64,000 bases of DNA. It comes from Patescibacteria group bacterium (GTDB taxonomy: Bacteria; Patescibacteriota; Minisyncoccia; Phycocordibacterales; PALSA-1337). Made by a program: the position numbers and the translations under genes. This document shows positions 1,641 to 63,592 of this stretch, in pieces. Location of the stretch: assembly GCA_018971685.1 (NCBI GenBank), contig JAGXAG010000005.1:1842-65841 (forward strand), in the 5' to 3' direction. Positions within the stretch are counted from its first letter, which is position 1. Every line of letters starts with the position of its first letter. The notes beneath the pieces are model-generated. The model was not told where the DNA came from. It made no database searches and saw only the letters and a program-made list of their open reading frames with translations.

Positions 1641-1783
1641 GAGAGTAGCGCGGTACTTTGAAAATTAAAAGTAAGTAGAGAATGTAAATGTGCAAGTAAA
1701 CGAAAATATTCCAAATGAGCTGGAAGCGAATATTAAGTAGGCGCATGTAAAAGTGCTTTCTATTTTGTTCCGTTCGCTTATAG

Positions 1784-3722
<1,939 letters not shown>

Positions 3723-7521: not shown

Positions 7522-7533
7522 CACTGCGTTCTC

Positions 7534-7695
7534 AATAAACTTCGGCACTTCCTTTTTGTGAGCCTCCGGGACTCATGTCGTTGAATTGCAAGGTTTTGTC
7601 GCTCTCCAATCCGCGTTCGCGACAAAACCTAGCAATTCGTACTCCATTCGAACAGGTCCTCGGCTCACAAAAAGGAAGTGCCGAAGTTTATTGCG
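7534..7695. repeat. Family-A hairpin element, intergenic copy: 32-bp perfect terminal inverted repeat around a ~98-bp structured core
   Basis: Arms are CAATAAACTTCGGCACTTCCTTTTTGTGAGCC (7534-7565) and the exact reverse complement (7664-7695). The core (GGGACTCATGTCGTTGAATTGCAAGGTTTTGTCGC...GCGACAAAACCTAGCAATTCG...AACAGGTCCTC) is homologous to the cores at 32361-32457 and 60565-60661. Confidence 0.65.
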
Positions 7696-7720
7696 ACTAT
7701 TTGAGATAGTGCAGACAAGT

Positions 7721-30883: not shown

Positions 30884-30971
30884 TCTCTGAAACAGTTTTT
30901 TACCCGGCGTACTATATGGAGCAGTGCGCCGGCTTTTTGTATTCGACTTTTCCGTTCCGTGGTACAATACT

Positions 30972-33074
30972 ATGCATCAATCGTTCGCGGGAACGGCAAC
31001 CGCATTTAATTCAATGGACGAGAATCGCGTAACATATTTTGCGGAGACAGACGCGCGTAACAAGCGGGTCAAATTTGGCATAAAGAGCAAGGACAGGACC
31101 AAGCATCTGTACGCCATCGGCAAAACCGGCATGGGCAAATCCACCATGTTGGAAAACATGGCCGTGCAAGACATTCAGGCCGGAGAAGGAATGTGTTTCA
31201 TCGATCCGCATGGCAAGACCGCCGACCTGCTCTTGGAATATGTGCCCAAAGAGCGCGTGAACGATGTCATATACATCGCGCCGTTCGATACCGACTTTCC
31301 GATATCGTTCAATGTGCTCGAAAGCGTCGATCCGGACAAGAGGCACTTGGTGGTGTCTGGCCTCATGAGTACATTCAAGAAAATCTGGGTCGACGCCTGG
31401 TCCGCCAGAATGGAATACATATTGACCAACACCCTTTTGGCATTGCTCGAAGCGCCGGGTTCCACGCTTCTCGGCGTGAATAGGTTGCTGTCGGACAAGG
31501 AATACAGGAGAGACATCGTGTCGAAAGTGCAGGATCCGTCGGTCAAAGCTTTCTGGACCAAGGAGTTCGCCAATTACAGCGAACGCATGGCTCAAGACGC
31601 TGTGCCCGCCATCCAGAACAAAGTCGGCCAATTCACCGCGAACCCGCTCATCAGGAACATGATCGGCCAGCCGCAGTCGTCGTTTGATTTCCGCCAGGCG
31701 ATGGATAACAGGAAAATAGTCATTATCAACCTTTCCAAAGGCCGGGTCGGCGACGAGAACATGAAGCTTTTGGGCGGCATGCTGGTGACGAAGATTTATT
31801 TGGCGGCAATGTCCAGGGCCGATACGCCGGATCGTATAGCCAGGACTCTGCCGAACTTCTATTTGTTCGTCGATGAATTCCAGAACTTCGCCAACGCCTC
31901 GTTTGCCGATATTCTTTCGGAGGCCAGGAAGTACAAGCTGAATTTGACGATCGCGCATCAATATATCGAGCAGATGGACGAGGATGTGCGCGCGGCGGTC
32001 TTCGGCAATGTGGGCACGATGATAGCTTTTCGGGTCGGCGCGACCGATGCGGAAGCGCTGGAGAAGGAATTTGCGCCGACTTTCACGATCGAGGATTTGG
32101 TGAATCTTGGATTCACCCAAATTTACCTAAAGTTAATGATCGACGGCCTGACCTCGTCGCCTTTTTCGGCGGTGACTTTGCCGCCGATCGCGCACCCGGG
32201 TTCTTCATTTGTAAAAGAAATTATCGAGGCGTCTAGAACACAATTCGCGCGGCCGCGAGTAATGGTTGAAGCTGAGATAGTGAAATTCCACGAACCGACG
32301 CAGAAATCGGCGCGGTCTGCTATTCCCGCGCCCGCAGGCGAAGCGCTTGCCGGTTCGAGTCTGCGGAACTCGCGTCGTGAAGTTGCCAGGTTTTCGGGCT
32401 CGACAGCGCGACCCGAAAACCTGGCAACTTCTACGCCGCTCAAACAGAGTCCTCGACTCGAACCGGCAAGCGCTTCGCCTGCGGGCGCGGCTGACGCAAG
32501 TACTTCAGTCGCTGCCAATATTTCCACTGATTCCAAAACTTCATCAGCGCCGTCGGCAAAGACGGATACGGTTTCCGAACCCTCTTCGGAGACGGGTTGG
32601 AGACAAAATCCGCATACTACCGACTCCCCGCCGAGAAAAGGCGGCGACGGCGGGCGTCCTGTTGTTCCGCTGTCACCGACCGTGGGTGAGGGAAACCGTG
32701 TTCGTAGAGCCGAAAAGCGCGAAGAGCTTGGACAGCATAACCAACAACATATTTCACTATCGTCGCTCAGTCGCAATCAACCCAAGCGCGACCTGAAGAC
32801 GCAATCGAAAGAGAATGTCAGTCAATTGAGAAACGCCCTGCAAGCCGCGCTCGGCAAGACCGAACGCGCCGCGCCCACTTTCTCGCCGACCGATGCCGCC
32901 GCGTCCGTTCCAGCCACAGCGCCTGCCGCGACAACCCAAAATACAATTGCCTCACAACCCGTACGGCAAAACCAAGCACTTCAAAAAACACCTGAAATTC
33001 CAAAAGTTCCGAAAACCGATAAAGTTCCTGAAGTCCCCGAAGAAGTCTTGAAAAAGGTCTTGAAAGTTGATTGA
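30972..33074 (+). CDS. Soluble VirD4/TraD-like type IV coupling-protein-family ATPase with ~250-aa low-complexity C-terminal tail
   Basis: Walker A AIGKTGMGKST; Walker B FYLFVDEFQNF; LTIAHQYIEQMDEDVRAAVFGNVGTMIAFRVGATDAEALEKEF matches the T4CP C-terminal block. No N-terminal TM. An extended -10 TGGTACAAT lies just upstream. The start is ambiguous (30972 or 31014). Confidence 0.65.
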   Translation: MHQSFAGTATAFNSMDENRVTYFAETDARNKRVKFGIKSKDRTKHLYAIGKTGMGKSTMLENMAVQDIQAGEGMCFIDPHGKTADLLLEYVPKERVNDVIYIAPFDTDFPISFNVLESVDPDKRHLVVSGLMSTFKKIWVDAWSARMEYILTNTLLALLEAPGSTLLGVNRLLSDKEYRRDIVSKVQDPSVKAFWTKEFANYSERMAQDAVPAIQNKVGQFTANPLIRNMIGQPQSSFDFRQAMDNRKIVIINLSKGRVGDENMKLLGGMLVTKIYLAAMSRADTPDRIARTLPNFYLFVDEFQNFANASFADILSEARKYKLNLTIAHQYIEQMDEDVRAAVFGNVGTMIAFRVGATDAEALEKEFAPTFTIEDLVNLGFTQIYLKLMIDGLTSSPFSAVTLPPIAHPGSSFVKEIIEASRTQFARPRVMVEAEIVKFHEPTQKSARSAIPAPAGEALAGSSLRNSRREVARFSGSTARPENLATSTPLKQSPRLEPASASPAGAADASTSVAANISTDSKTSSAPSAKTDTVSEPSSETGWRQNPHTTDSPPRKGGDGGRPVVPLSPTVGEGNRVRRAEKREELGQHNQQHISLSSLSRNQPKRDLKTQSKENVSQLRNALQAALGKTERAAPTFSPTDAAASVPATAPAATTQNTIASQPVRQNQALQKTPEIPKVPKTDKVPEVPEEVLKKVLKVD
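32329..32489. repeat. Family-A hairpin element, in-frame copy inside the T4CP-like gene (32-bp perfect terminal inverted repeat)
   Basis: GCGCCCGCAGGCGAAGCGCTTGCCGGTTCGAG (32329-32360) is the exact reverse complement of 32458-32489. Inner stem GTTGCCAGGTTTTCGGG/CCCGAAAACCTGGCAAC around loop CTCGACAGCGCGA. Encodes ...PAGEALAGSSLRNSRREVARFSGSTARPENLATSTPLKQSPRLEPASASPAG... Confidence 0.7.
32633..32700. repeat. Family-B GC-rich repeat, in-frame copy in the T4CP-like gene
   Basis: ACTCCCCGCCGAGAAAAGGCGGCGACGGCGGGCGTCCTGTTGTTCCGC...CGTGGGTGAGGGAAACC is ~80 percent identical to 58881-58958 in secA. Confidence 0.55.
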
Positions 33075-34285
33075 ATGCGATTATGCGCCGCATCCTCATA
33101 TTTTCGCTGGTGTACTATCCGAACATGATCGGCGGGGCCGAGGTGGCGATAAAAGAAATCACCGATCGGATTCCGGACAGTGAAATCGAATTCGACATGG
33201 TGGCATTGCGATTGGACCGTAAACTCCCTAAGTTCGAAAAGATCGGCAATGTAAATATTCACAGAATCGGCTGGACAGGCAAACAAAAGACATTGTCAGA
33301 TTCTTTGCCGCCATATCTGCATTTGAATAAATACGCGTATCTCGCCCTGGGACTATTCAAGGCAATTTCCTTGAATCGAAAAAGGAAATATGACGCCATC
33401 TGGTCGCTAATGGCGACATATAATTCATTCGCGGCCGTGCTTTTCAAATTGGCGCATCCGAAAATACCGTTCATCTTCACTCTACAAGACGGCGATCCGA
33501 TCCCGTATTTGAAAAGGCGCGCCCGGCCGCTATATCCAATGTTCAAGATGATGTTTACCCGCGCGGACGCCATTCAGGCCATTTCGAAATATCTTGCAGA
33601 TTGGGCGCTGGATATGGGCGCGAAATGTCCCGTTACAATCGTGCCAAACGGGGTAGATTATCGATTTTTCTCAAAACAGGTCTCCGGCGGGCGTTTAGGG
33701 GCTTTAAAAGCGCAACTAGGCAAGCGGGAAGGCGATATTTTCCTCATTACGGTCTCTAGATTGGTAGCCAAAAACGCCGTTGGCGACATCATTCAAGCTT
33801 TGAATTATTTGCCGATTAATATCAAGTTGCTCATCGCGGGAACAGGCTATGAAGAGGAAAGGTTGAAGAAGATGGTTCGCACCGGTCCGACCGGTGTACA
33901 CCGGTCGGACCGGTGCGAACCCAGCGTCATATTCCTAGGACATGTGCCGCATGCAGATCTGCCGATGTATCTCCAAGCCTCGAACATATTCATCCGCCCG
34001 TCGCTCTCCGAAGGTTTCGGCAATTCATTTGTCGAAGCGATGGCCGCCGGCATTCCCGTCATCGCCACGCCGGTCGGCGGTATTGTTGACTTTTTGCGCG
34101 ACGGCGAAACCGGACTTTTCTGTGAAGTTAGAAACCCAAGATCGATCGCGGAAAAAGTCGAACGGTTGATCGACAACGAGGGGTTGCAGAATTCTTTGGT
34201 GATAAATGCGAGGAGAATGGTTGAAGACAAATATGACTGGAATAAAATTGCCAATGAAATGAAAATGATATTTGCCGGAGTCTGA
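33071..34285 (+). CDS. Glycosyltransferase family 4 (GT-B, Glycos_transf_1)
   Basis: SLSEGFGNSFVEAMAAGIPVIATPVGGIVDFL (E-x7-E motif). Contains the in-frame 48-bp palindrome at 33875-33922 encoding VRTGPTGVHRSDRCEP. Confidence 0.85.
   Translation: MNAIMRRILIFSLVYYPNMIGGAEVAIKEITDRIPDSEIEFDMVALRLDRKLPKFEKIGNVNIHRIGWTGKQKTLSDSLPPYLHLNKYAYLALGLFKAISLNRKRKYDAIWSLMATYNSFAAVLFKLAHPKIPFIFTLQDGDPIPYLKRRARPLYPMFKMMFTRADAIQAISKYLADWALDMGAKCPVTIVPNGVDYRFFSKQVSGGRLGALKAQLGKREGDIFLITVSRLVAKNAVGDIIQALNYLPINIKLLIAGTGYEEERLKKMVRTGPTGVHRSDRCEPSVIFLGHVPHADLPMYLQASNIFIRPSLSEGFGNSFVEAMAAGIPVIATPVGGIVDFLRDGETGLFCEVRNPRSIAEKVERLIDNEGLQNSLVINARRMVEDKYDWNKIANEMKMIFAGV
33875..33922. repeat. Family-D motif as a perfect 48-bp palindrome GGTTCGCACCGGTCCGACCGGTGTA|TACACCGGTCGGACCGGTGCGAACC, in-frame in the GT4 gene
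   Basis: Exact reverse-complement symmetry. Contains the CACCGGTCCGACCGGTG motif, which is also tandemly repeated at the obg 3' end. Confidence 0.7.
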
Positions 34286-53876: not shown

Positions 53877-56132
53877 ATGACCATCAAAAAAACCACTCGC
53901 TTTGTAACGATCGCCGCTCTCTTCCTCGTCCCCATTTTCGCTCTGATCGTAGCCAACTCGCTCTTTTTCCCGTTTATTACCGGCAAGGCATTCTATTTCC
54001 GCCTCATGGTTGAGATCGCTTTCGCCGCCTGGGTGATTCTGGCTTTTCTTGATGCCAGATACCGGCCGAAGCTGAATGCTCTCACGGTCGGCGTGACACT
54101 TTTTACTGTTGTCGCCCTCATTGCCGACCTTCTGGGCGTGAATCCGATCCGAAGCATGTGGTCCAATTTCGAACGCATGGAGGGCTGGATAACGATCGTT
54201 CATCTGTGGGCGTTCTTCATCGCGGCGGCGGCGGTGTTCGGCGCGGAAGGGGAGGCGAAAAAGTGGTGGCATCGGTTCTTCAATTTCGAATTGGCGGTGG
54301 CTTTTGTCGTCGGGCTTTACGGCTTGGGACAATTGCTCGGCTGGTTCGCGATCCATCAGGGTTCGACCAGGATCGACGCGTCGCTGGGCAATGCGGCGTA
54401 CATGGCGGTTTACATGCTCATGAACGCCGGTTTGGCGGCGTACTTGTTCCTGGCGGAAAAGGCGAAGCGCGCGGCGGCAAAATCGCCGGGCATTTCATTC
54501 ATGGGCTGGATATATATTGTTCTTACCGTACTCTTTTCTTTCCTCCTCTTTGAAACTTCCACTCGCGGCACGATTCTCGGCTTTACCGGCGGACTCATGC
54601 TGGCGCTTTTCCTCTATGCGCTTTTTGCCAAGAATGGATCCAAGCGGTCGCGCATGATCTCAGGCGGCGTCGTGGCGCTCATTGTGATCGCGGGCATCGG
54701 CATTTACGCTTTGCGCAACCAGCCGATCGTCAAGAACAACGAGGTCTTGAACCGCATGACGAGCATTTCCTTGAGCAATACCGAGTCGACGGCGCGCCTT
54801 TATATCTGGCAAATGGCTCTGACCGGCTGGACCGAAAGGCCGGTTTTGGGTTGGGGCCAGGAGAATTTCAACTACATCTTCAACGCCAATTACAATCCGA
54901 AAATGTGGTCGCAGGAGCAGTGGTTCGATCGCGCGCACAGCGTATACTTCGACTGGCTGGTGGCTGGAGGGTTGGTGGGACTCATGGCTTATCTCGCGCT
55001 GTATGTATTGTTGTTGCGCGGAATTTGGAAATCGGGATTTACCATGTCCGAAAAGTGCGCCTTGACCGGACTGGTGGCCGGCTACGCGGTGCACAACATA
55101 TTTGTGTTCGATAACTTGGCGAGCTATGTCTTGTTCTTTACTCTGCTCGGATTCGTTGCGTCGATAAAATCCTCCGCTGCTTTGCGGCACCCCCTTTTGC
55201 AAAGGGGGAATTCATCGCAAGAATCTTTCACTAACGGCGCTTCAACCATAGGCGGAACGAAGGAAGTCAGGCCCGAGATAGTCGAATATGTGGTGGCGCC
55301 GATATCGATCGTCGCCTTGGTTATCGTGATTTTCTTCTTTGAACTGCGCCCATACCAAGCCAATACCGCTCTTATCACCGCTTTGCAATCATGCTCCGGA
55401 CCGACGCCGGACGCTACATTGTTCGACAAGGCGCTTGCCGTGAACACTTATGTTGCCAACCAGGAAATCCGCGAGCAGTCGCTCTCTTGCGCCGGTTCGG
55501 TCATCGGAAGCCAGAGTGCGCCCGGACCGACGAAGCAGGCTTTCTTCCAGTTGGCCGTGAATAATATCCAGGCTCAGATTGCCGCCACGCCGAAAGATGC
55601 GAGGATGTATGTGCTCGGCGGCGGATTCTTGCTGGGTGCGGGACAAAACGCGCAAGCCCTGCAGCTGCTCGTCGACGCGCACGCGCTGTCGCCGGCCAAA
55701 CAGTCGATTGATTTTCAATTGGCGCAAGCGTATTTGAATGCCGGCCAGATACCGGAATCAGTGGCGGTATTGCGGCAAGCCTATGAAGGCGATCCGTCGT
55801 ATGGCGAAGCGCGCTCGGCCTATGCCACCGGGTTGGTTCTGACCGGGCAGGAAAGTTTGGCGCACCAATTGTTCGGCGACGATCCGGCGGTATTCCAGAC
55901 CGAGCAGATGGCGGGCGTATATGCCAACCTGAAGCAATACCAAAAAGCGATCTCGATCTATGTTGCGCTCATCAAAAACAGCCCGACGGATGTCAACTTG
56001 CTTTCCAGGCTTGCGCAAATACAATACGCGGCGGGCATGAAGACGCAAGCGATTGCGACCTTGCGCAGTATTGAGAAGGATCATCCGGAATACAAAGACC
56101 AGATCGAGGCGGCGATCAAGCAGGTGCAGTAG
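53877..56132 (+). CDS. O-antigen ligase/Wzy_C-domain polytopic membrane protein fused to C-terminal TPR repeats (candidate glycan ligase/O-oligosaccharyltransferase)
   Basis: About 12 TM helices with a large loop (Wzy_C-like); the C-terminal ~250 aa carry TPR-like repeats (AQAYLNAGQIPESVAVLRQAYEGDPSYGEA...). The start is taken at the ATG at 53877; the listed 53718 start overlaps Wzm. Confidence 0.65.
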   Translation: MTIKKTTRFVTIAALFLVPIFALIVANSLFFPFITGKAFYFRLMVEIAFAAWVILAFLDARYRPKLNALTVGVTLFTVVALIADLLGVNPIRSMWSNFERMEGWITIVHLWAFFIAAAAVFGAEGEAKKWWHRFFNFELAVAFVVGLYGLGQLLGWFAIHQGSTRIDASLGNAAYMAVYMLMNAGLAAYLFLAEKAKRAAAKSPGISFMGWIYIVLTVLFSFLLFETSTRGTILGFTGGLMLALFLYALFAKNGSKRSRMISGGVVALIVIAGIGIYALRNQPIVKNNEVLNRMTSISLSNTESTARLYIWQMALTGWTERPVLGWGQENFNYIFNANYNPKMWSQEQWFDRAHSVYFDWLVAGGLVGLMAYLALYVLLLRGIWKSGFTMSEKCALTGLVAGYAVHNIFVFDNLASYVLFFTLLGFVASIKSSAALRHPLLQRGNSSQESFTNGASTIGGTKEVRPEIVEYVVAPISIVALVIVIFFFELRPYQANTALITALQSCSGPTPDATLFDKALAVNTYVANQEIREQSLSCAGSVIGSQSAPGPTKQAFFQLAVNNIQAQIAATPKDARMYVLGGGFLLGAGQNAQALQLLVDAHALSPAKQSIDFQLAQAYLNAGQIPESVAVLRQAYEGDPSYGEARSAYATGLVLTGQESLAHQLFGDDPAVFQTEQMAGVYANLKQYQKAISIYVALIKNSPTDVNLLSRLAQIQYAAGMKTQAIATLRSIEKDHPEYKDQIEAAIKQVQ
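55184..55213. repeat. Family-C small hairpin element (CCCCCTTT-TGC-AAAGGGGG) in-frame in the Wzy_C-TPR gene
   Basis: GCGGCACCCCCTTTTGCAAAGGGGGAATTC is the near reverse complement of 60714-60742 in secA. Confidence 0.5.
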
Positions 56133-56157: not shown

Positions 56158-56196
56158 AACAATCAACAGAGGGGCACCCTCTGTTGATTGTTTTGT
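56158..56196 (+). terminator. Intrinsic terminator (15-bp perfect stem AACAATCAACAGAGG/CCTCTGTTGATTGTT, loop GGCAC, then TTG/T-rich)
   Basis: Directly after the Wzy_C-TPR gene stop. Confidence 0.6.
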
Positions 56197-58160: not shown

Positions 58161-58237
58161 CGAGGTTAGTCCTCGAGGACTAACCTCGAAGCGAAAGTAT
58201 GTTATAGTAGCGATTACCGAGATCGAATCTCGGCACT

Positions 58238-61200
58238 ATGTCATTTTTCGGCAAATTATTGGGCAATACGCAACATACGCAGAGCGTCAAACACTTCGAG
58301 CCTTTAGTAGCGAAAATCAACGCGCTTGAGGAATCTTTTAAGGCGCTTTCGGACCAAGAATTAAAGGCGAAGACGGTTGAATTTCGCAGGCGTTTGGGGG
58401 TAGCGCCATCGGTTTCGCCGCTTCCTGCAGTTGCAGAGGGTGCTCCTATGCAAGCCTCTGTAGAGGCCGTCATCCCCGGTGACATCCTGTCCGAAGCCTT
58501 TGCCGCCGTGCGCGAGGCGGCCAGGAGAACGCTTGGCCAGAGGCATTTTGATGTGCAGCTTATAGGCGGCATGGTCCTCGATTCCGGAGCGATCGCGGAG
58601 ATGAGGACCGGCGAAGGCAAAACGCTCGTAGCGACCTTGTCGGCGTATTTGAATGCTCTTTCCGGCAAAGGCGTCCACATTGTCACTGTCAACGATTATC
58701 TTTCCCGCCGAGATGCTGTGTGGATGGGGCAGATTTACGATTTTCTAGGTTTGACTGTAGGAGTAATAAACCATGAAGCCAGCTTTCTGTACGATTCGAG
58801 CATCGCGCCCCAAGGTGCAGCGGGAACGGATTCTGGACCCTCTTCGGAGGCGGGGGGTGTACCAACTTCACCTACCTCGTACTCCCCGCCGAGAAAAGAC
58901 GGCGCCGGCGGGCGTTCCGTTGTTCCGCCGGCGACGATCGTGGGTGAAGAACCCGTTCCCGCGAAGCCGACAGGACGCGATACCGATGTTCGTGTCGACC
59001 ATAAACTCGACAAGGAGCGTGACGATGTTGGCGCGTTCAAGGTCGTCCACGAATTTTTGCGGCCGTGTACCCGCCGTGAAGCCTATGCCGCCGATATCAC
59101 CTACGGCACCAACAACGAATTTGGCTTCGACTATCTGCGCGACAACCTCGAATATTCTCCGGCCGCTTTGCGCCAACGGCCATTCAACTACGCCATAGTC
59201 GACGAAATCGACTCCATCTTGATCGACGAGGCGCGTACGCCCTTGATCATCTCCGCGCCATCGCGCGACGCCGAGAGCACTTACAAACAGTTCGCCGCGC
59301 TTGTTGTTTCATTCAAGGAAAATGAAGACTATGAAAAAGACGAGAAGAGAAAAGCCATATCGCTTTTGCCGGCCGGCATAGAGAAAGCCGAGAAAGCGCT
59401 CGGCATCGACAATATTTACACCAATGCCGGCATAAAATATGTGCACCATTTGGAGACGGCGGTCAGAGCCAAAGCGCTGTTTAAGCGCGACAAAGAATAT
59501 GTCGTCAAGGACAACCAGATAGTGATCGTCGATGAATTCACCGGCCGATTGCAGCCCGGACGAAGATGGTCGGAAGGATTGCACCAGGCCATCGAAGCCA
59601 AAGAAGGCGTGGTGATACAGCAGGAGTCCAGGACTTACGCCACGATCACATTCCAAAATTTCTTCCGCATGTATCCGAAGCTTTCCGGCATGACCGGCAC
59701 GGCGGCAACTTCCAGCGAAGAATTTTATAAAGTCTACGGCTTGGATGTGTATATGGTGCCGCCGAATGTGCCGGTGGTGCGCGCCGATAAGAACGACCAA
59801 ATATTCAGGACCGAGCCGGGCAAATTCAAGGCCATTGCCAGGAAAGTGAAAGAACTGCACGACAAGGGCCAGCCGGTTCTGATCGGCACGGTGTCGATCG
59901 AGCGCAACGAGCTCTTGTCACAATTCTTGAAAGCCGAAGGCATACCGCATACGATGTTGAATGCCAAGCCGGAATATGCCGAGCGCGAAGGCGAAACGGT
60001 GGCGCAGGCGGGCAAGAAAGGCGCGGTCACGATCGCGACCAACATGGCGGGCCGCGGCGTGGACATCAAGCTCGGCGGCAATCCGAATACCAAGGAAGCG
60101 TATGAAGAAGTAAAACGCCTGGGCGGGCTTTTCGTCTTGGGCACGGAAAGGCACGAAGCGCGGCGCATCGACAATCAGCTTCGCGGGCGATCGGGCAGGC
60201 AGGGCGATCCGGGCGAGACGCAATTCTTCGTTTCGTTGGAAGACACGCTGATGCGAGTGTTCGCGTCGGATACCTTGAAGTCGATGATGGGGCGCCTGGG
60301 CATGGCGGAAGACGAGCCGATCGAGCATCGGCTGATTTCTAAGGCGTTGGAGAGCGCGCAGGAGAAAATAGAGGGTTTCAATTTCGATTCGCGCAAGCAT
60401 GTGCTGGAATTTGACGATGTGATCAATACGCAACGCTCGAGTGTGTATTCGAGGCGCAGGAGATTGCTCTTGGGCAATGTTGACGATGTGGAAAAAGAGC
60501 TGTTTGAGATTTTGGGCTTGAATGACACCGCCGCCTCGCCGGACGGAACATTCTCGGCCGCGAGTCTGCGGGACTCGCGTCGTGAAATTGCAAGGTTTTC
60601 CGGCTCGACAGCGCGACCGGAAAACCTTGCAATTTCAACGCCGCTCAAACAGAGTCCTCGCCTCGCGGCCGAGAATGTTCCGTCCGGCGAGGCGGCGGCT
60701 GACGCGATTGATGGAAATTCTCCCTTTGGAAAAGGGGGTGCTCCGGAGCGAAGCGGAGGGGCGGGGGATTTTGAGTCGGTAATTCAAAAGAAAATCTCCG
60801 AATTCGGACGCGATAACTTCTTGAATGCGGCGCGAATAATATTACTGCAGACGATTGACATGTACTGGGTGGAGCATCTGGAGGTGATGGATTACACCAG
60901 GGGCAGCGTGAATTTGCGGGCGTACGGGCAGAGGGATCCATTGGTGGAATACAAAAAGGAGGGTTTGCGGCTGTTTCGGGAAATGCAAAACGCCGTGCGC
61001 GAGCAGGTTGTGCGCATTTTGCCGAACATCGTGCCGGTCATTCAGGGCCAGGCGGCGCAAAACATTTCATCGAACGCCGCGCCGAAGAATTCGGTTCTAA
61101 CTCCCGAAATGCGCGAAGTGCACGAAAACGCGCGAATCATCGGATCGCAAGACGGCTCCGGCAAAGCGGTTCAGTCTGCCAAAAAGGAGCCGCAGTTTGG

Positions 61201-61267
61201 CCGGAATGATCCCTGCTGGTGCGGCAGTGGGAAAAAGTACAAGAAGTGCCATGGGAAGAATGTCTAA
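58238..61267 (+). CDS. secA: Preprotein translocase ATPase SecA with C-terminal zinc-binding tail and two repeat-element-derived inserts
   Basis: LHAMRTGEGKTLVATL (Walker A) and VTIATNMAGRGVDIKLGG (motif VI); the C-terminus is CWCGSGKKYKKCHG. Foreign inserts at 58881-58958 and 60528-60698. Confidence 0.97.
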   Translation: MSFFGKLLGNTQHTQSVKHFEPLVAKINALEESFKALSDQELKAKTVEFRRRLGVAPSVSPLPAVAEGAPMQASVEAVIPGDILSEAFAAVREAARRTLGQRHFDVQLIGGMVLDSGAIAEMRTGEGKTLVATLSAYLNALSGKGVHIVTVNDYLSRRDAVWMGQIYDFLGLTVGVINHEASFLYDSSIAPQGAAGTDSGPSSEAGGVPTSPTSYSPPRKDGAGGRSVVPPATIVGEEPVPAKPTGRDTDVRVDHKLDKERDDVGAFKVVHEFLRPCTRREAYAADITYGTNNEFGFDYLRDNLEYSPAALRQRPFNYAIVDEIDSILIDEARTPLIISAPSRDAESTYKQFAALVVSFKENEDYEKDEKRKAISLLPAGIEKAEKALGIDNIYTNAGIKYVHHLETAVRAKALFKRDKEYVVKDNQIVIVDEFTGRLQPGRRWSEGLHQAIEAKEGVVIQQESRTYATITFQNFFRMYPKLSGMTGTAATSSEEFYKVYGLDVYMVPPNVPVVRADKNDQIFRTEPGKFKAIARKVKELHDKGQPVLIGTVSIERNELLSQFLKAEGIPHTMLNAKPEYAEREGETVAQAGKKGAVTIATNMAGRGVDIKLGGNPNTKEAYEEVKRLGGLFVLGTERHEARRIDNQLRGRSGRQGDPGETQFFVSLEDTLMRVFASDTLKSMMGRLGMAEDEPIEHRLISKALESAQEKIEGFNFDSRKHVLEFDDVINTQRSSVYSRRRRLLLGNVDDVEKELFEILGLNDTAASPDGTFSAASLRDSRREIARFSGSTARPENLAISTPLKQSPRLAAENVPSGEAAADAIDGNSPFGKGGAPERSGGAGDFESVIQKKISEFGRDNFLNAARIILLQTIDMYWVEHLEVMDYTRGSVNLRAYGQRDPLVEYKKEGLRLFREMQNAVREQVVRILPNIVPVIQGQAAQNISSNAAPKNSVLTPEMREVHENARIIGSQDGSGKAVQSAKKEPQFGRNDPCWCGSGKKYKKCHGKNV
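58881..58958. repeat. Family-B GC-rich repeat, in-frame copy in secA
   Basis: ACTCCCCGCCGAGAAAAGACGGCGCCGGCGGGCGTTCCGTTGTTCCGCC...CGTGGGTGAAGAACCCGTTCC; flanked by GCGGGAACGG (58819-58828) / CCGTTCCCGC (58953-58962). Confidence 0.55.
60528..60698. repeat. Family-A hairpin element, in-frame copy inside secA (about 37-bp perfect terminal inverted repeat)
   Basis: CCGCCGCCTCGCCGGACGGAACATTCTCGGCCGCGAG (60528-60564) is the reverse complement of 60662-60698. Inner stem ATTGCAAGGTTTTCCGG/CCGGAAAACCTTGCAAT with the same loop CTCGACAGCGCGA as the 32329 copy. Encodes ...SAASLRDSRREIARFSGSTARPENLAISTPLKQSPRLAAENVPSGEAAA... Confidence 0.7.
60714..60742. repeat. Family-C small hairpin element, in-frame copy in secA (inverted relative to 55184-55213)
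   Basis: GAAATTCTCCCTTTGGAAAAGGGGGTGCT versus reverse complement of 55184-55213 GAATTCCCCCTTTGCAAAAGGGGGTGCC. Confidence 0.5.
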
Positions 61268-62507: not shown

Positions 62508-62548
62508 AAATTATAAACAATTAGTAAATCGTAAATTGTTTATAATTT
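62508..62548. promoter_or_regulatory. Perfect 15-bp inverted repeat AAATTATAAACAATT-N11-AATTGTTTATAATTT embedding TATAAT 8 nt upstream of the obg ATG
   Basis: Same arm sequences as the rpoB-upstream repeat at 9199-9262. TATAAT at 62541-62546. Confidence 0.45.
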
Positions 62549-62554
62549 ACTCAA

Positions 62555-63592
62555 ATGTCATTCATCGACGAAATAACTTTCCATGCATCAGCCGGCCGCG
62601 GCGGCAATGGGGTTGTCCGCTGGCGTCATGAGAAGGCGAAAGAATTCGCCGGCGCGGCGGGAGGCAACGGCGGCCGAGGCGGTTCGGTATTCGTGCGCGC
62701 GGTTAGGGATATCAATATCCTCTCGCGGCACAAAACGACCAAAAACTTCAGGGCGGGGAACGGGGAAGACGGCATGGGTCTTTCCAAGCACGGCAAGAAT
62801 GGCGAGGACTTTTTCATAGACTTGCCGATCGGTTCGATCGCCGTCAATCGCGAAACCGGACGGACGGTGGAATTGCTCGAAGAAGGCCAGACGATATTGA
62901 TCCTTCACGGCGGGCGAGGCGGACTGGGCAATGAGCACTTCAAAGCATCGACCAATGTTAAGCCTGAACAGTCGACAAATGGAATGCCCGGCGAAGAAGC
63001 CGACTTTACCGTCGAGCTGAACTTGATCGCCGATATCGGACTGGTCGGTTTGCCCAATGCCGGCAAATCGAGTTTGCTCAATGCTATGACCGGCGCGCGC
63101 GCCAAAGTCGCCTCCTACGCTTTCACCACCCTCGATCCCAATCTCGGAGTCTTGCCGGGCGGCTTTATCGTCGCTGACATTCCCGGCCTCATCGAAGGCG
63201 CCGCCGAAGGCAAAGGCCTCGGCGACAAATTCTTGCGGCACATAAAACGCACCAAGATGATCATGCACCTGATCTCCCTCGAAGAAAGCAATAATATCTC
63301 CAATAAAACTGTGGATAACTCGTATCGCGTAATTCGTCGCGAGTTGGAAAAATTCGGTAACGGTCTTGCCGACAAGCGCGAAATAATTGTCCTGACAAAA
63401 ACCGATCTCGCTAGCCCAGAAGAGGTTGCAGCCGCCGAAGCAACATTACTAAAGTATAATAAAGAAATATCAAAGGTTACTATTCTGGACGACTATTCCG
63501 TTAAGAAATTGACCGAAGCCGTCATCAAGAAGGTCTCGGTCACCGGTCCGACCGGTGCCACCGGTCCGACCGGTGTTTGCGCGGGCGTATAA
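62555..63592 (+). CDS. obg: GTPase Obg/CgtA with C-terminal GPTG tandem motif
   Basis: MSFIDEITFHASAGRGGNGVVRWRHEKAKEFAGAAGGNGGRGGSV (Obg fold), GLVGLPNAGKSSLLNAMT (G1) and DIPGLIEGA (G3). The C-terminus VSVTGPTGATGPTGVCAGV is encoded by a tandem CACCGGTCCGACCGGTG motif. Confidence 0.9.
   Translation: MSFIDEITFHASAGRGGNGVVRWRHEKAKEFAGAAGGNGGRGGSVFVRAVRDINILSRHKTTKNFRAGNGEDGMGLSKHGKNGEDFFIDLPIGSIAVNRETGRTVELLEEGQTILILHGGRGGLGNEHFKASTNVKPEQSTNGMPGEEADFTVELNLIADIGLVGLPNAGKSSLLNAMTGARAKVASYAFTTLDPNLGVLPGGFIVADIPGLIEGAAEGKGLGDKFLRHIKRTKMIMHLISLEESNNISNKTVDNSYRVIRRELEKFGNGLADKREIIVLTKTDLASPEEVAAAEATLLKYNKEISKVTILDDYSVKKLTEAVIKKVSVTGPTGATGPTGVCAGV
63541..63575. repeat. Family-D motif CACCGGTCCGACCGGTG in direct tandem (x2) at the obg 3' end
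   Basis: CACCGGTCCGACCGGTGCCACCGGTCCGACCGGTG; the same motif forms the 48-bp palindrome at 33875-33922. Confidence 0.6.

Follow-up and report, generated by a model that had tools for sequence, protein, structure and literature searches.

A conserved hairpin core with locus-specific arms lies in frame within secA of a Patescibacteria group bacterium

Three copies of family A in the window

Palindromic repeats inserted in frame in essential genes have so far been largely a Rickettsia curiosity. Here we describe such a repeat, which we refer to as family A, within secA of a Patescibacteria group bacterium. The window that we analysed is a stretch of 64,000 nucleotides (contig JAGXAG010000005.1, positions 1,842 to 65,841) and holds three copies: one in secA, one in a gene for a type IV coupling protein-like (T4CP-like) protein and one between genes (Table 1). 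In secA the repeat forms a near-perfect palindrome at window positions 60528-60698, in frame and 171 nt or 57 codons long, and the open reading frame (ORF) runs on uninterrupted with all conserved SecA blocks and the C-terminal zinc motif kept. The ORF reads SLRDSRREIARFSGSTARPENLAISTPLKQSPRL and, farther along, ILLQTIDMYWVEHL. The T4CP copy (32326-32490; 165 nt, 55 codons) is also in frame and translates to SLRNSRREVARFSGSTARPENLATSTPLKQSPRL. It lies in a low-complexity C-terminal tail, about 90 residues past an ATPase domain whose matches to TrwB_AAD_bind and TraG-D_C, over residues 48-376, are weak yet above cutoff. The third copy (7530-7696) begins 9 nt past the stop codon of rpsP. A preliminary description of this DNA had placed the repeat in frame in secA and in the T4CP-like gene, where it would create new peptide segments, and had ascribed the antisense ORFs at these sites to the palindrome. 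Both genes are indeed open, the coordinates and sequence given for the secA copy are correct, the peptides quoted are real and the two antisense ORFs do carry ARFSGRAVEPENLA (ARFSG...PENLA).

The 35-nt arm pattern of the secA copy had no match in 100 shuffles, and the predicted RNA fold of the palindrome reaches -147.9 kcal/mol (z = -15.8). The stems of about 75 bp are far longer than terminator stems, and the U-tract that together with a GC-rich stem defines an intrinsic terminator is absent after the stem in all three window copies (3′ flanks CTGACGCG, CTGACGCA and CTATTTGAG).

Independent assemblies are 100% identical to the window over the parts that they cover and jointly span the secA element, each of them breaking within it. 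A contig of the same organism (P0001) extends from the left junction through the core and across most of the right arm, to about position 60686, and the contigs L129-L131, which start at 60669-60692, hold the right junction; they overlap by 18 nt without a mismatch. A frameshift, a possibility raised in the preliminary description, is not seen: secA is open across the insert, and the independent contigs confirm the junctions without a mismatch. Short-read contigs (the end of L128, the starts of L129-L131 and the ends of L121 and L133) stop in a palindrome or at an arm/core border. The termini of P0001 and of P0121, a fragment of the T4CP-like protein, also fall in palindromes, and both genes have been deposited as partial in public metagenome-assembled genomes (MAGs). 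In practical terms, these palindromes break every short-read assembly examined and create long spurious antisense ORFs, and annotators can mislabel essential genes as partial or as pseudogenes.

Table 1. Features discussed in the text, in window coordinates unless a locus is named
Feature	Position	Strand	Remarks
secA ORF	58238-61267	+	1009 aa, intact; insert at residues ~764-820
5′ arm, secA copy	60528-60564	+	37 nt, locus-specific, 100% complementary to the 3′ arm
Family-A core, secA copy	60565-60661	+	97 nt; conserved part 60566-60660 (CTGCGG...GTCCTCG)
3′ arm, secA copy	60662-60698	+	37 nt, other half of the perfect inverted repeat
Covariance model match, secA copy	60559-60665	+	100.7 bits
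Apical hairpin, secA core	60583-60637	+	perfect 21-bp stem (60583-60603 / 60617-60637), 13-nt loop
Insert peptide stretch			SLRDSRREIARFSGSTARPENLAISTPLK
Antisense ORF at secA	60175-60648	-	spurious, product of the secA palindrome; carries ARFSGRAVEPENLA
Small palindromic repeat, secA linker	60716-60741	+	CTCCCTTTGGAAAAGGGGG; relative at 55187-55212
T4CP-like ORF	30924-33074	+	716 aa; ATPase domain at residues ~48-376, insert at ~468-522
5′ arm, T4CP copy	32326-32361	+	36 nt, perfect
Family-A core, T4CP copy	32362-32454	+	92% identity to the secA core
3′ arm, T4CP copy	32455-32490	+	pairs with 32326-32361
Antisense ORF at T4CP-like gene	32123-32776	-	spurious, product of the T4CP palindrome; carries ARFSGRAVEPENLA
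Third copy, intergenic	7530-7696	+	35-nt arms (1 mismatch) and 97-nt core
Family D	58821-58947 (secA), 32563-32689 (T4CP-like)		in frame in both; 77% identity over 127 nt
Family-S secA genes	L123:1261-3936, L125:1001-3700, L126:1001-3814, L127:1001-3748		four other CPR species

The conserved core and its arms

Alignment of the three window copies shows that the centre alone is common to them; the arms of 35-37 nt differ from place to place, and each pair is self-complementary or nearly so. The dispersed unit is the core of about 95 nt alone, because the cores of two loci (L015 and L043) are 100% identical over 99 nt and their arms show no relation to each other even at the very edge of the core, and because the similarity of arms between loci is not significant. 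The preliminary description had treated the whole secA palindrome as one element. That the repeat is shared holds; its extent as a single unit does not, the two arms of 35-37 nt being specific to the locus.

The structure of the core is conserved and strand-specific, and the element as a whole is composite. The consensus reads CTSCGGRACTC, then a variable tip, then TCARACAG(A)GTCCTCG, and folds into 38 base pairs that are intact in 95.6% of cells, as against 82.6% after column shuffles and 29-47% with slid partners. Compensatory changes occur at 17 pairs, the G·U pairs at alignment columns 20:121 and 25:115 are invariant or nearly so, and a 3-nt bulge and an internal loop with CTCARACAG (7-9 nt) are conserved. 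Variation is gathered in the tip, 13-33 nt long, and in the apical hairpin, whose loop and upper stem differ between copies by compensatory changes. With a covariance model, one strand scores 75-118 bits and the opposite one only 31-41 bits. Within one genome the cores are 90-100% identical, and the arms of the same copies carry up to about 18% mismatches, which are transitions and show no G·U bias on the (+) strand of the core. Thus the core is either constrained in sequence and structure or very young, and the arms are unconstrained.

A census, made by scanning genome collections with the inner hairpin pattern and then with the covariance model, gave 14 loci in four genomes of the candidate phyla radiation (CPR): this organism, two Saccharibacteria MAGs and Patescibacteria UBA5187. 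An unclassified bin holds one copy more. Every copy has the same build of core and locus-specific arms. The arms are 35, 37, 36(42), 33, 24, 33, 33, 30, 34, 35, 37, 30, 29 and 20 bp long, follow the base composition of their surroundings and abut the core with 0-1 unpaired nt; they are perfect in five copies, have one mismatch in four and several in the others. A metagenome scan returned three matches, two of them being the loci L033 and L043.

At the protein level, a profile built from the two insert peptides had no match in an indexed protein database. An exhaustive search with such a profile over 1.84 billion representatives recovered the T4CP protein fragment P0121 and a 54-aa ORF on another copy of the repeat (P0122), its remaining three matches being repeat noise; this is a weak negative, as the representatives stand for clusters at 50% identity and in-frame copies in conserved proteins would be hidden among them. 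A covariance search of Rfam 15, introns and ribozymes included, gave no match at the gathering score, merely sub-threshold noise from microRNA hairpins. The family-A core had no match in viral, plasmid and phage collections. The idea that arms are spacer-like guides taken from phages was rejected, as three arms tried had no exact match in viral contigs.

Unrelated repeats, among them some of Cardinium, Gammaproteobacteria and Saprospiraceae, likewise contain the inner hairpin TTGCAAGGTTTT...AAAACCTTGCAA. We considered these carriers outside the CPR as members of the family and rejected them, since the similarity ends at about 16 nt. As an observation in its own right, this 12-nt stem recurs in unrelated multicopy repeats of many phyla (L003-L118), with about 100 matches in some 90 chunks of the Cardinium endosymbiont NZ_OZ026476, far above the roughly two expected by chance from a hand estimate; Gammaproteobacteria KW1-S08_198 and Saprospiraceae MAGs are further carriers. 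At L003, the one locus inspected, a 291-aa ORF judged by eye to be a candidate IS982-type transposase precedes the hairpin, which is about 200 nt downstream of it, and several taxa have TAGTCG exactly 70 nt upstream.

The insertion site in SecA

The in-frame insertion in SecA is lineage-specific, and its site is a hotspot. The closest matches to this SecA are P0001, a partial sequence from the same organism whose contig ends in the element, followed by orthologs with 69-79% identity across the full alignment. The orthologs without the element are at most 77% identical. None of 60 aligned orthologs has the family-A peptide, and in the shortest of them ...DDVExEL..IxG is joined directly to ..IIxKKIxEFGRE with nothing at the insert site; therefore the segment is an insert and not an ancient domain, an alternative that the preliminary description had proposed to check against such orthologs. 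That description had also called the insert specific to its lineage. This is so for the SecA segment, which has no counterpart in the 60 orthologs, and not for the core itself, which is present in Saccharibacteria and other Patescibacteria MAGs.

In an alignment with solved structures, the SecA sequences on either side of the insert correspond to residues 555-667 and 738-790 of the E. coli protein. The insert thereby occupies the position of the helical wing domain, a domain almost absent in this SecA clade, between the scaffold helix and the following helix of the helical scaffold domain (HSD). This position describes the site better than the C-terminal helical region named in the preliminary description. 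In an AlphaFold2 model, of which only the local confidence pattern was used because the model is poor overall (predicted local distance difference test, pLDDT, 58.5), residues 764-840 fall below a pLDDT of 50 between helices at 72-92.

The insert site is hypervariable across the SecA clade, and other core families occupy it. In four other CPR species (L123, L125, L126 and L127) a different conserved core of 84-86 nt, family S, lies at the same secA codon and encodes PQGT.SALASAAAGS.SPSL.PKRPS. Its arms are perfect, 19, 17, 12 and 16 nt long respectively, and different in sequence in each species. At this spot L122 bears a further core, whose arms measure 14 nt. Between species, family-S cores share 73-90% identity, compared with 66-74% for the conserved secA flanks and 34-48% for their third codon positions; synonymous sites in these flanks are saturated, and the first hairpin of the S core co-varies. 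The S core had no match in viral contigs. We also considered whether the family-A arm in secA is a remnant of family S, through nested insertion, and dropped the idea as the DNA alignment was unconvincing.

A second hotspot lies at SecA residues ~190-255. Here family D, a repeat common to the T4CP-like gene and to the SecA of P0003, gives SecA the peptide SPPRKDGAGGRSVVPPATIVGEE and the T4CP-like protein the peptide SPPRKGGDGGRPVVPLSPTVGEG; P0003 has the family-D peptide at this same hotspot, and S-like peptides are found there in P0010-P0012.

A smaller GC palindrome, CCCCCTTTTGCAAAGGGGG, occurs in an O-antigen-ligase/TPR gene (55187-55212) and again in secA, 18 nt 3′ of the family-A element, where it encodes NSPFGKGGAP. 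The SecA of P0035 has a similar peptide, SPFEKGG/AEKGGAP.

Origin of the arms

The arms contain host sequence, as the gene ends next to them reveal. At L033 one arm encodes the C-terminus of RuvC (HAAKKR...), which is native according to more than 40 orthologs. At L101 (267-432) two convergent genes both end in GQVA[K/R]*, their last codons and stops being encoded by the two arms of one palindrome; therefore one C-terminus is an inverted copy of the other. More generally, a stop codon directly adjoins 11 of the 12 intergenic copies, which often lie between convergent genes.

The RuvC locus offers the one case in which an orthologous site without the core is itself a stem-loop that matches the arms, as is expected if hairpin loops are targeted. 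In the ortholog L132 (89% aa identity) the core is missing and a perfect 21-bp hairpin with the loop ACCACA stands in its place, its stem corresponding to the outer 21 bp of the arms of L033 and L133. L133 (88% aa identity) has the core and the same stem top, GAGTGG, as L132. The layout of L033 is stem-TGTGGT-TTTGTGAATC-core-GATTCACAAA-ACCACA-stem′, so that TGTGGT and ACCACA flank the core and the loop sequence of L132 has gained an inverted partner. L033 further differs from both L133 and L132 by a GT-to-AC change that is mirrored, and thus compensated, on both arms. The comparison indicates that the outer 21 bp of these arms probably pre-existed, and it speaks, at this locus, for an insertion into the tip of a hairpin combined with templated copying in inverted form.

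Whatever the scenario, some templated process has to be involved, as perfect arms of 20-37 bp in local sequence, some of them with coding sequence, cannot arise by point mutation. Hairpin-nucleated template switching within one strand is the most economical account. We propose that family A is a non-coding structured hairpin repeat, resembling repetitive extragenic palindromic (REP) sequences and Rickettsia palindromic elements (RPEs), that lands at hairpin tips and acquires its stems by fold-back copying of the flank, and in our judgement this reading stands about evenly balanced between right and wrong. We infer the landing and copying steps, the selfish nature of the element and the translation of the insert from sequence comparison. 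In this proposal the core would land at or beside the tip of a local stem-loop, mostly a hairpin in terminator position directly after a stop codon. During DNA synthesis the core hairpin would snap back and the polymerase would copy the 5′ flank into an inverted 3′ copy, by intra-strand template switching of the kind that operates in quasipalindrome correction. If a complementary stem was already there, the strand could return in register, and because of this the stem would adjoin the core without unpaired leftover and be perfect when young; later switches could re-copy one arm from the other. Template switching of this kind would therefore explain the preference for hairpin tips, the lack of leftovers between arm and core and the compensated changes of L033. 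A genic copy would persist only if its length keeps the frame, the frame used is stop-free and the site tolerates a floppy loop. The helical-wing position of SecA and the tail of the T4CP-like protein appear to satisfy these conditions, and the element would be translated there as about 55-57 residues.

Several observations weigh against this proposal. The secA and T4CP copies have 7 nt of 3′ flank in common (CTGACGC, encoding AADA), with weak arm similarity (p = 0.06); given this flank, the arms of these two copies may have travelled with the core, and the two may stem from the copying of a larger unit, their arms having been re-templated later. The bookkeeping of lengths is ambiguous, as family-S gaps of 84 nt suggest that arms add no length. 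An inserted unit of core plus one arm found no support, since its removal breaks the secA frame and the family-S sums are not multiples of 3. The old copies L063, L086 and L097 have 4-6 arm mismatches, so that re-templating is not continuous. L132, the single empty site, could be a deletion scar instead of a naive target, and 10 nt of the inner arm of L033 (TTTGTGAATC) are absent from it and unexplained. Exact-protein look-ups of neighbouring genes yielded no polymorphic empty site for the three window copies, no mobilising enzyme was found (none of the 10 window ORFs scanned is a transposase), and every other assembly breaks inside these palindromes.

The first alternative dispenses with fold-back copying: the arms would be pre-existing host hairpins, terminators or bare palindromes such as the one at 33874-33921, and a structure-specific enzyme, a single-strand transposase or a recombinase, would place the core at their centre. 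It accounts well for the coreless hairpin of L132, whose stem matches the outer 21 bp of the L033 and L133 arms, and for the intergenic copies in the positions of terminator hairpins. Long perfect stand-alone hairpins are also common in the window, two having no loop and one lying inside a gene, and the near-identical cores in imperfect arms of MAG ERP113451_co1_453 (cores 90-99% identical, arms with up to about 18% mismatches) are as expected for young cores in old hairpins. However, it requires that at least five species independently came to have perfect hairpins of 12-37 bp at one and the same secA codon, and it fits poorly with arms that abut the core with 0-1 unpaired nt though host loops measure 3-16 nt, or with the L132 loop sequence having gained an inverted partner in L033. 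Perfect 21-bp stems that include seven RuvC codons would still need a templated origin, and no candidate enzyme appears among the ten ORFs scanned. We regard this alternative as rather unlikely.

A second alternative, that family A is an RNA element of benefit to the host, is improbable. It would act as a stabiliser or terminator of 3′ ends or as a protein-binding module, the genic copies modulating translation of secA and the T4CP-like gene or decay of their mRNA. The strand-specific structure, the invariant G·U pairs and the conserved unpaired nucleotides speak for such a role, as do the location directly after stop codons and the fact that cores evolve much more slowly than arms and neighbouring synonymous sites. 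Yet slow evolution of the core is equally expected of an active selfish repeat. The U-tract is lacking in the window copies, intergenic copies with a single adjacent gene end lie in either orientation to that gene (3 sense, 2 antisense), the + strand has no G·U bias among arm mismatches, Rfam holds no match and a hairpin of about 75 bp within an essential ORF looks costly.

Very improbable is a third alternative, in which the segment is removed as an intervening sequence or skipped by ribosomes, leaving a SecA protein without the segment and an open frame that is incidental. The perfect stem does draw the two flanks together, CPR genomes are known for insertions in rRNA, and the 16S rRNA gene of the same window is about 390 nt longer than the model. 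Against this stand the lengths of 171 and 165 nt, both multiples of 3, the absence of an intron or ribozyme match and a perfect stem that leaves no bulge-helix-bulge geometry. In addition, the frame used by the genic copies is stop-free in both of them whereas the intergenic and Saccharibacteria copies have stop codons (TGA) in it, a pattern that selection on translation predicts. That the palindromes are artefacts of assembly or amplification, fold-back chimeras for instance, is hardly credible despite the breaks of short-read assemblies inside the palindromes, since both flanks run into the correct gene in frame, independent contigs overlap by 18 nt without mismatch and the same architecture recurs at 14 loci in MAGs from different projects.

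Compared with known systems, family A behaves like RPEs and occupies a niche like that of REPs, and we class it neither with the RPEs nor with the MITEs (miniature inverted-repeat transposable elements), as its ends are not conserved. The RPEs, of which RPE-1 to RPE-10 were reportedly described by Ogata et al. in 2000, are likewise dispersed palindromic repeats of ~100-150 nt that occur between genes and in frame within them, essential ones included, leave the ORF open and insert in surface or permissive regions. The analogy with RPEs drawn in the preliminary description thus holds for behaviour and fails at the element ends. RPEs are homologous over the whole element, ends included, whereas here the arms are unrelated even where cores are 100% identical: only the core is conserved, the outer 20-37 bp are locus-specific, the core structure is strand-asymmetric, the host is an unrelated one, a member of the Patescibacteria, and family A is not known to be related to RPEs in sequence. 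Like REP, BIME and REPIN sequences, which are mobilised by REP-associated tyrosine transposases of the Y1 HUH type (RAYTs), family A forms hairpins directly after genes, evolves by compensatory changes and is probably recognised as a folded single strand. REPs differ in being 20-40 nt long, strictly extragenic and conserved as a whole, as against a core of about 95 nt with local arms and two intragenic copies, and no RAYT gene was seen among the few window ORFs scanned.

Some insertion sequences (IS) target hairpin loops, IS1397 and ISKpn1 in REP palindromic units and relatives of IS1111/IS110 among them. The RuvC locus (L132 vs L033) is alike in that the insertion probably lies at the tip of a stem-loop that was there before. 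Unlike family A, whose core is non-coding and where a loop became stem, these elements are autonomous and protein-coding and either duplicate their target directly or leave no duplication. Bacterial MITEs (Correia, ERIC/IRU, RUP and Nezha) are also small non-autonomous repeats, sometimes co-transcribed or in frame, but their terminal inverted repeats are conserved, unlike family-A arms. A reading of the flanks for direct target-site duplications gave no consistent direct repeat and fuzzy element boundaries. The attC sites of integrons likewise are imperfect, strand-specific hairpins with fixed extrahelical bases and a variable terminal structure; their layout is the reverse, with conserved outer R and L boxes and a variable centre, and they are tied to IntI and cassettes, of which there are none here.

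Template-switch mutagenesis at quasipalindromes was modelled by Ripley and studied in E. coli by the Lovett laboratory. As in quasipalindrome correction, an imperfect hairpin would become perfect and longer, one arm being copied from the other without net change in length. That process works by point or short-patch mutation, and we know of no description of it building arms of 20-37 bp around a mobile core, or protein segments. In the literature searched, neither this architecture nor inverted target duplications, in which a stem is made from the flank, are described for bacterial mobile repeats. The combination of a conserved strand-specific core and perfect stems particular to each locus suggests that a mutational or insertional process copies the flank in inverted form. 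It is possible, though doubtful, that CPR genomes harbour on this basis a novel kind of small-DNA insertion, in which hairpin cores at stem-loop tips and fold-back synthesis duplicate the flank in inverted form and routinely build long perfect stems at gene ends. If so, essential proteins, SecA for one, would gain new peptide segments from the in-frame cases, again and again at the same hotspots and from several unrelated core families (A, S, D and others). With different species of Patescibacteria having several core families at the same two SecA hotspots, this would be a general way for tiny genomes to acquire stretches of protein.

Hairpins abound elsewhere in the window, which has 22 perfect inverted repeats of at least 11 nt as against 1-4 in shuffles, with many long hairpins after stop codons. 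Perfect hairpins at 58161-58188, 62508-62548, 56158-56192 and 1269-1305 have stems of 14-18 bp and loops of 0-11 nt, and the first three start 1-26 nt past stop codons. The long perfect hairpins may have been made by the same fold-back process, or else be targets or scars. A 16-nt palindromic motif, ACCGGTCCGACCGGTG, is repeated with nine matches against 0.05 expected. Two inverted copies form a 48-nt perfect palindrome without a loop at 33874-33921, in frame in a glycosyltransferase gene, and two direct copies at 63541-63575 encode the C-terminal TGPTGATGPTG of Obg. The 16S rRNA gene (1780-3702) measures 1923 nt compared with a model of 1533 nt, and its insertion includes a hairpin with 12-nt arms at 3269-3341.

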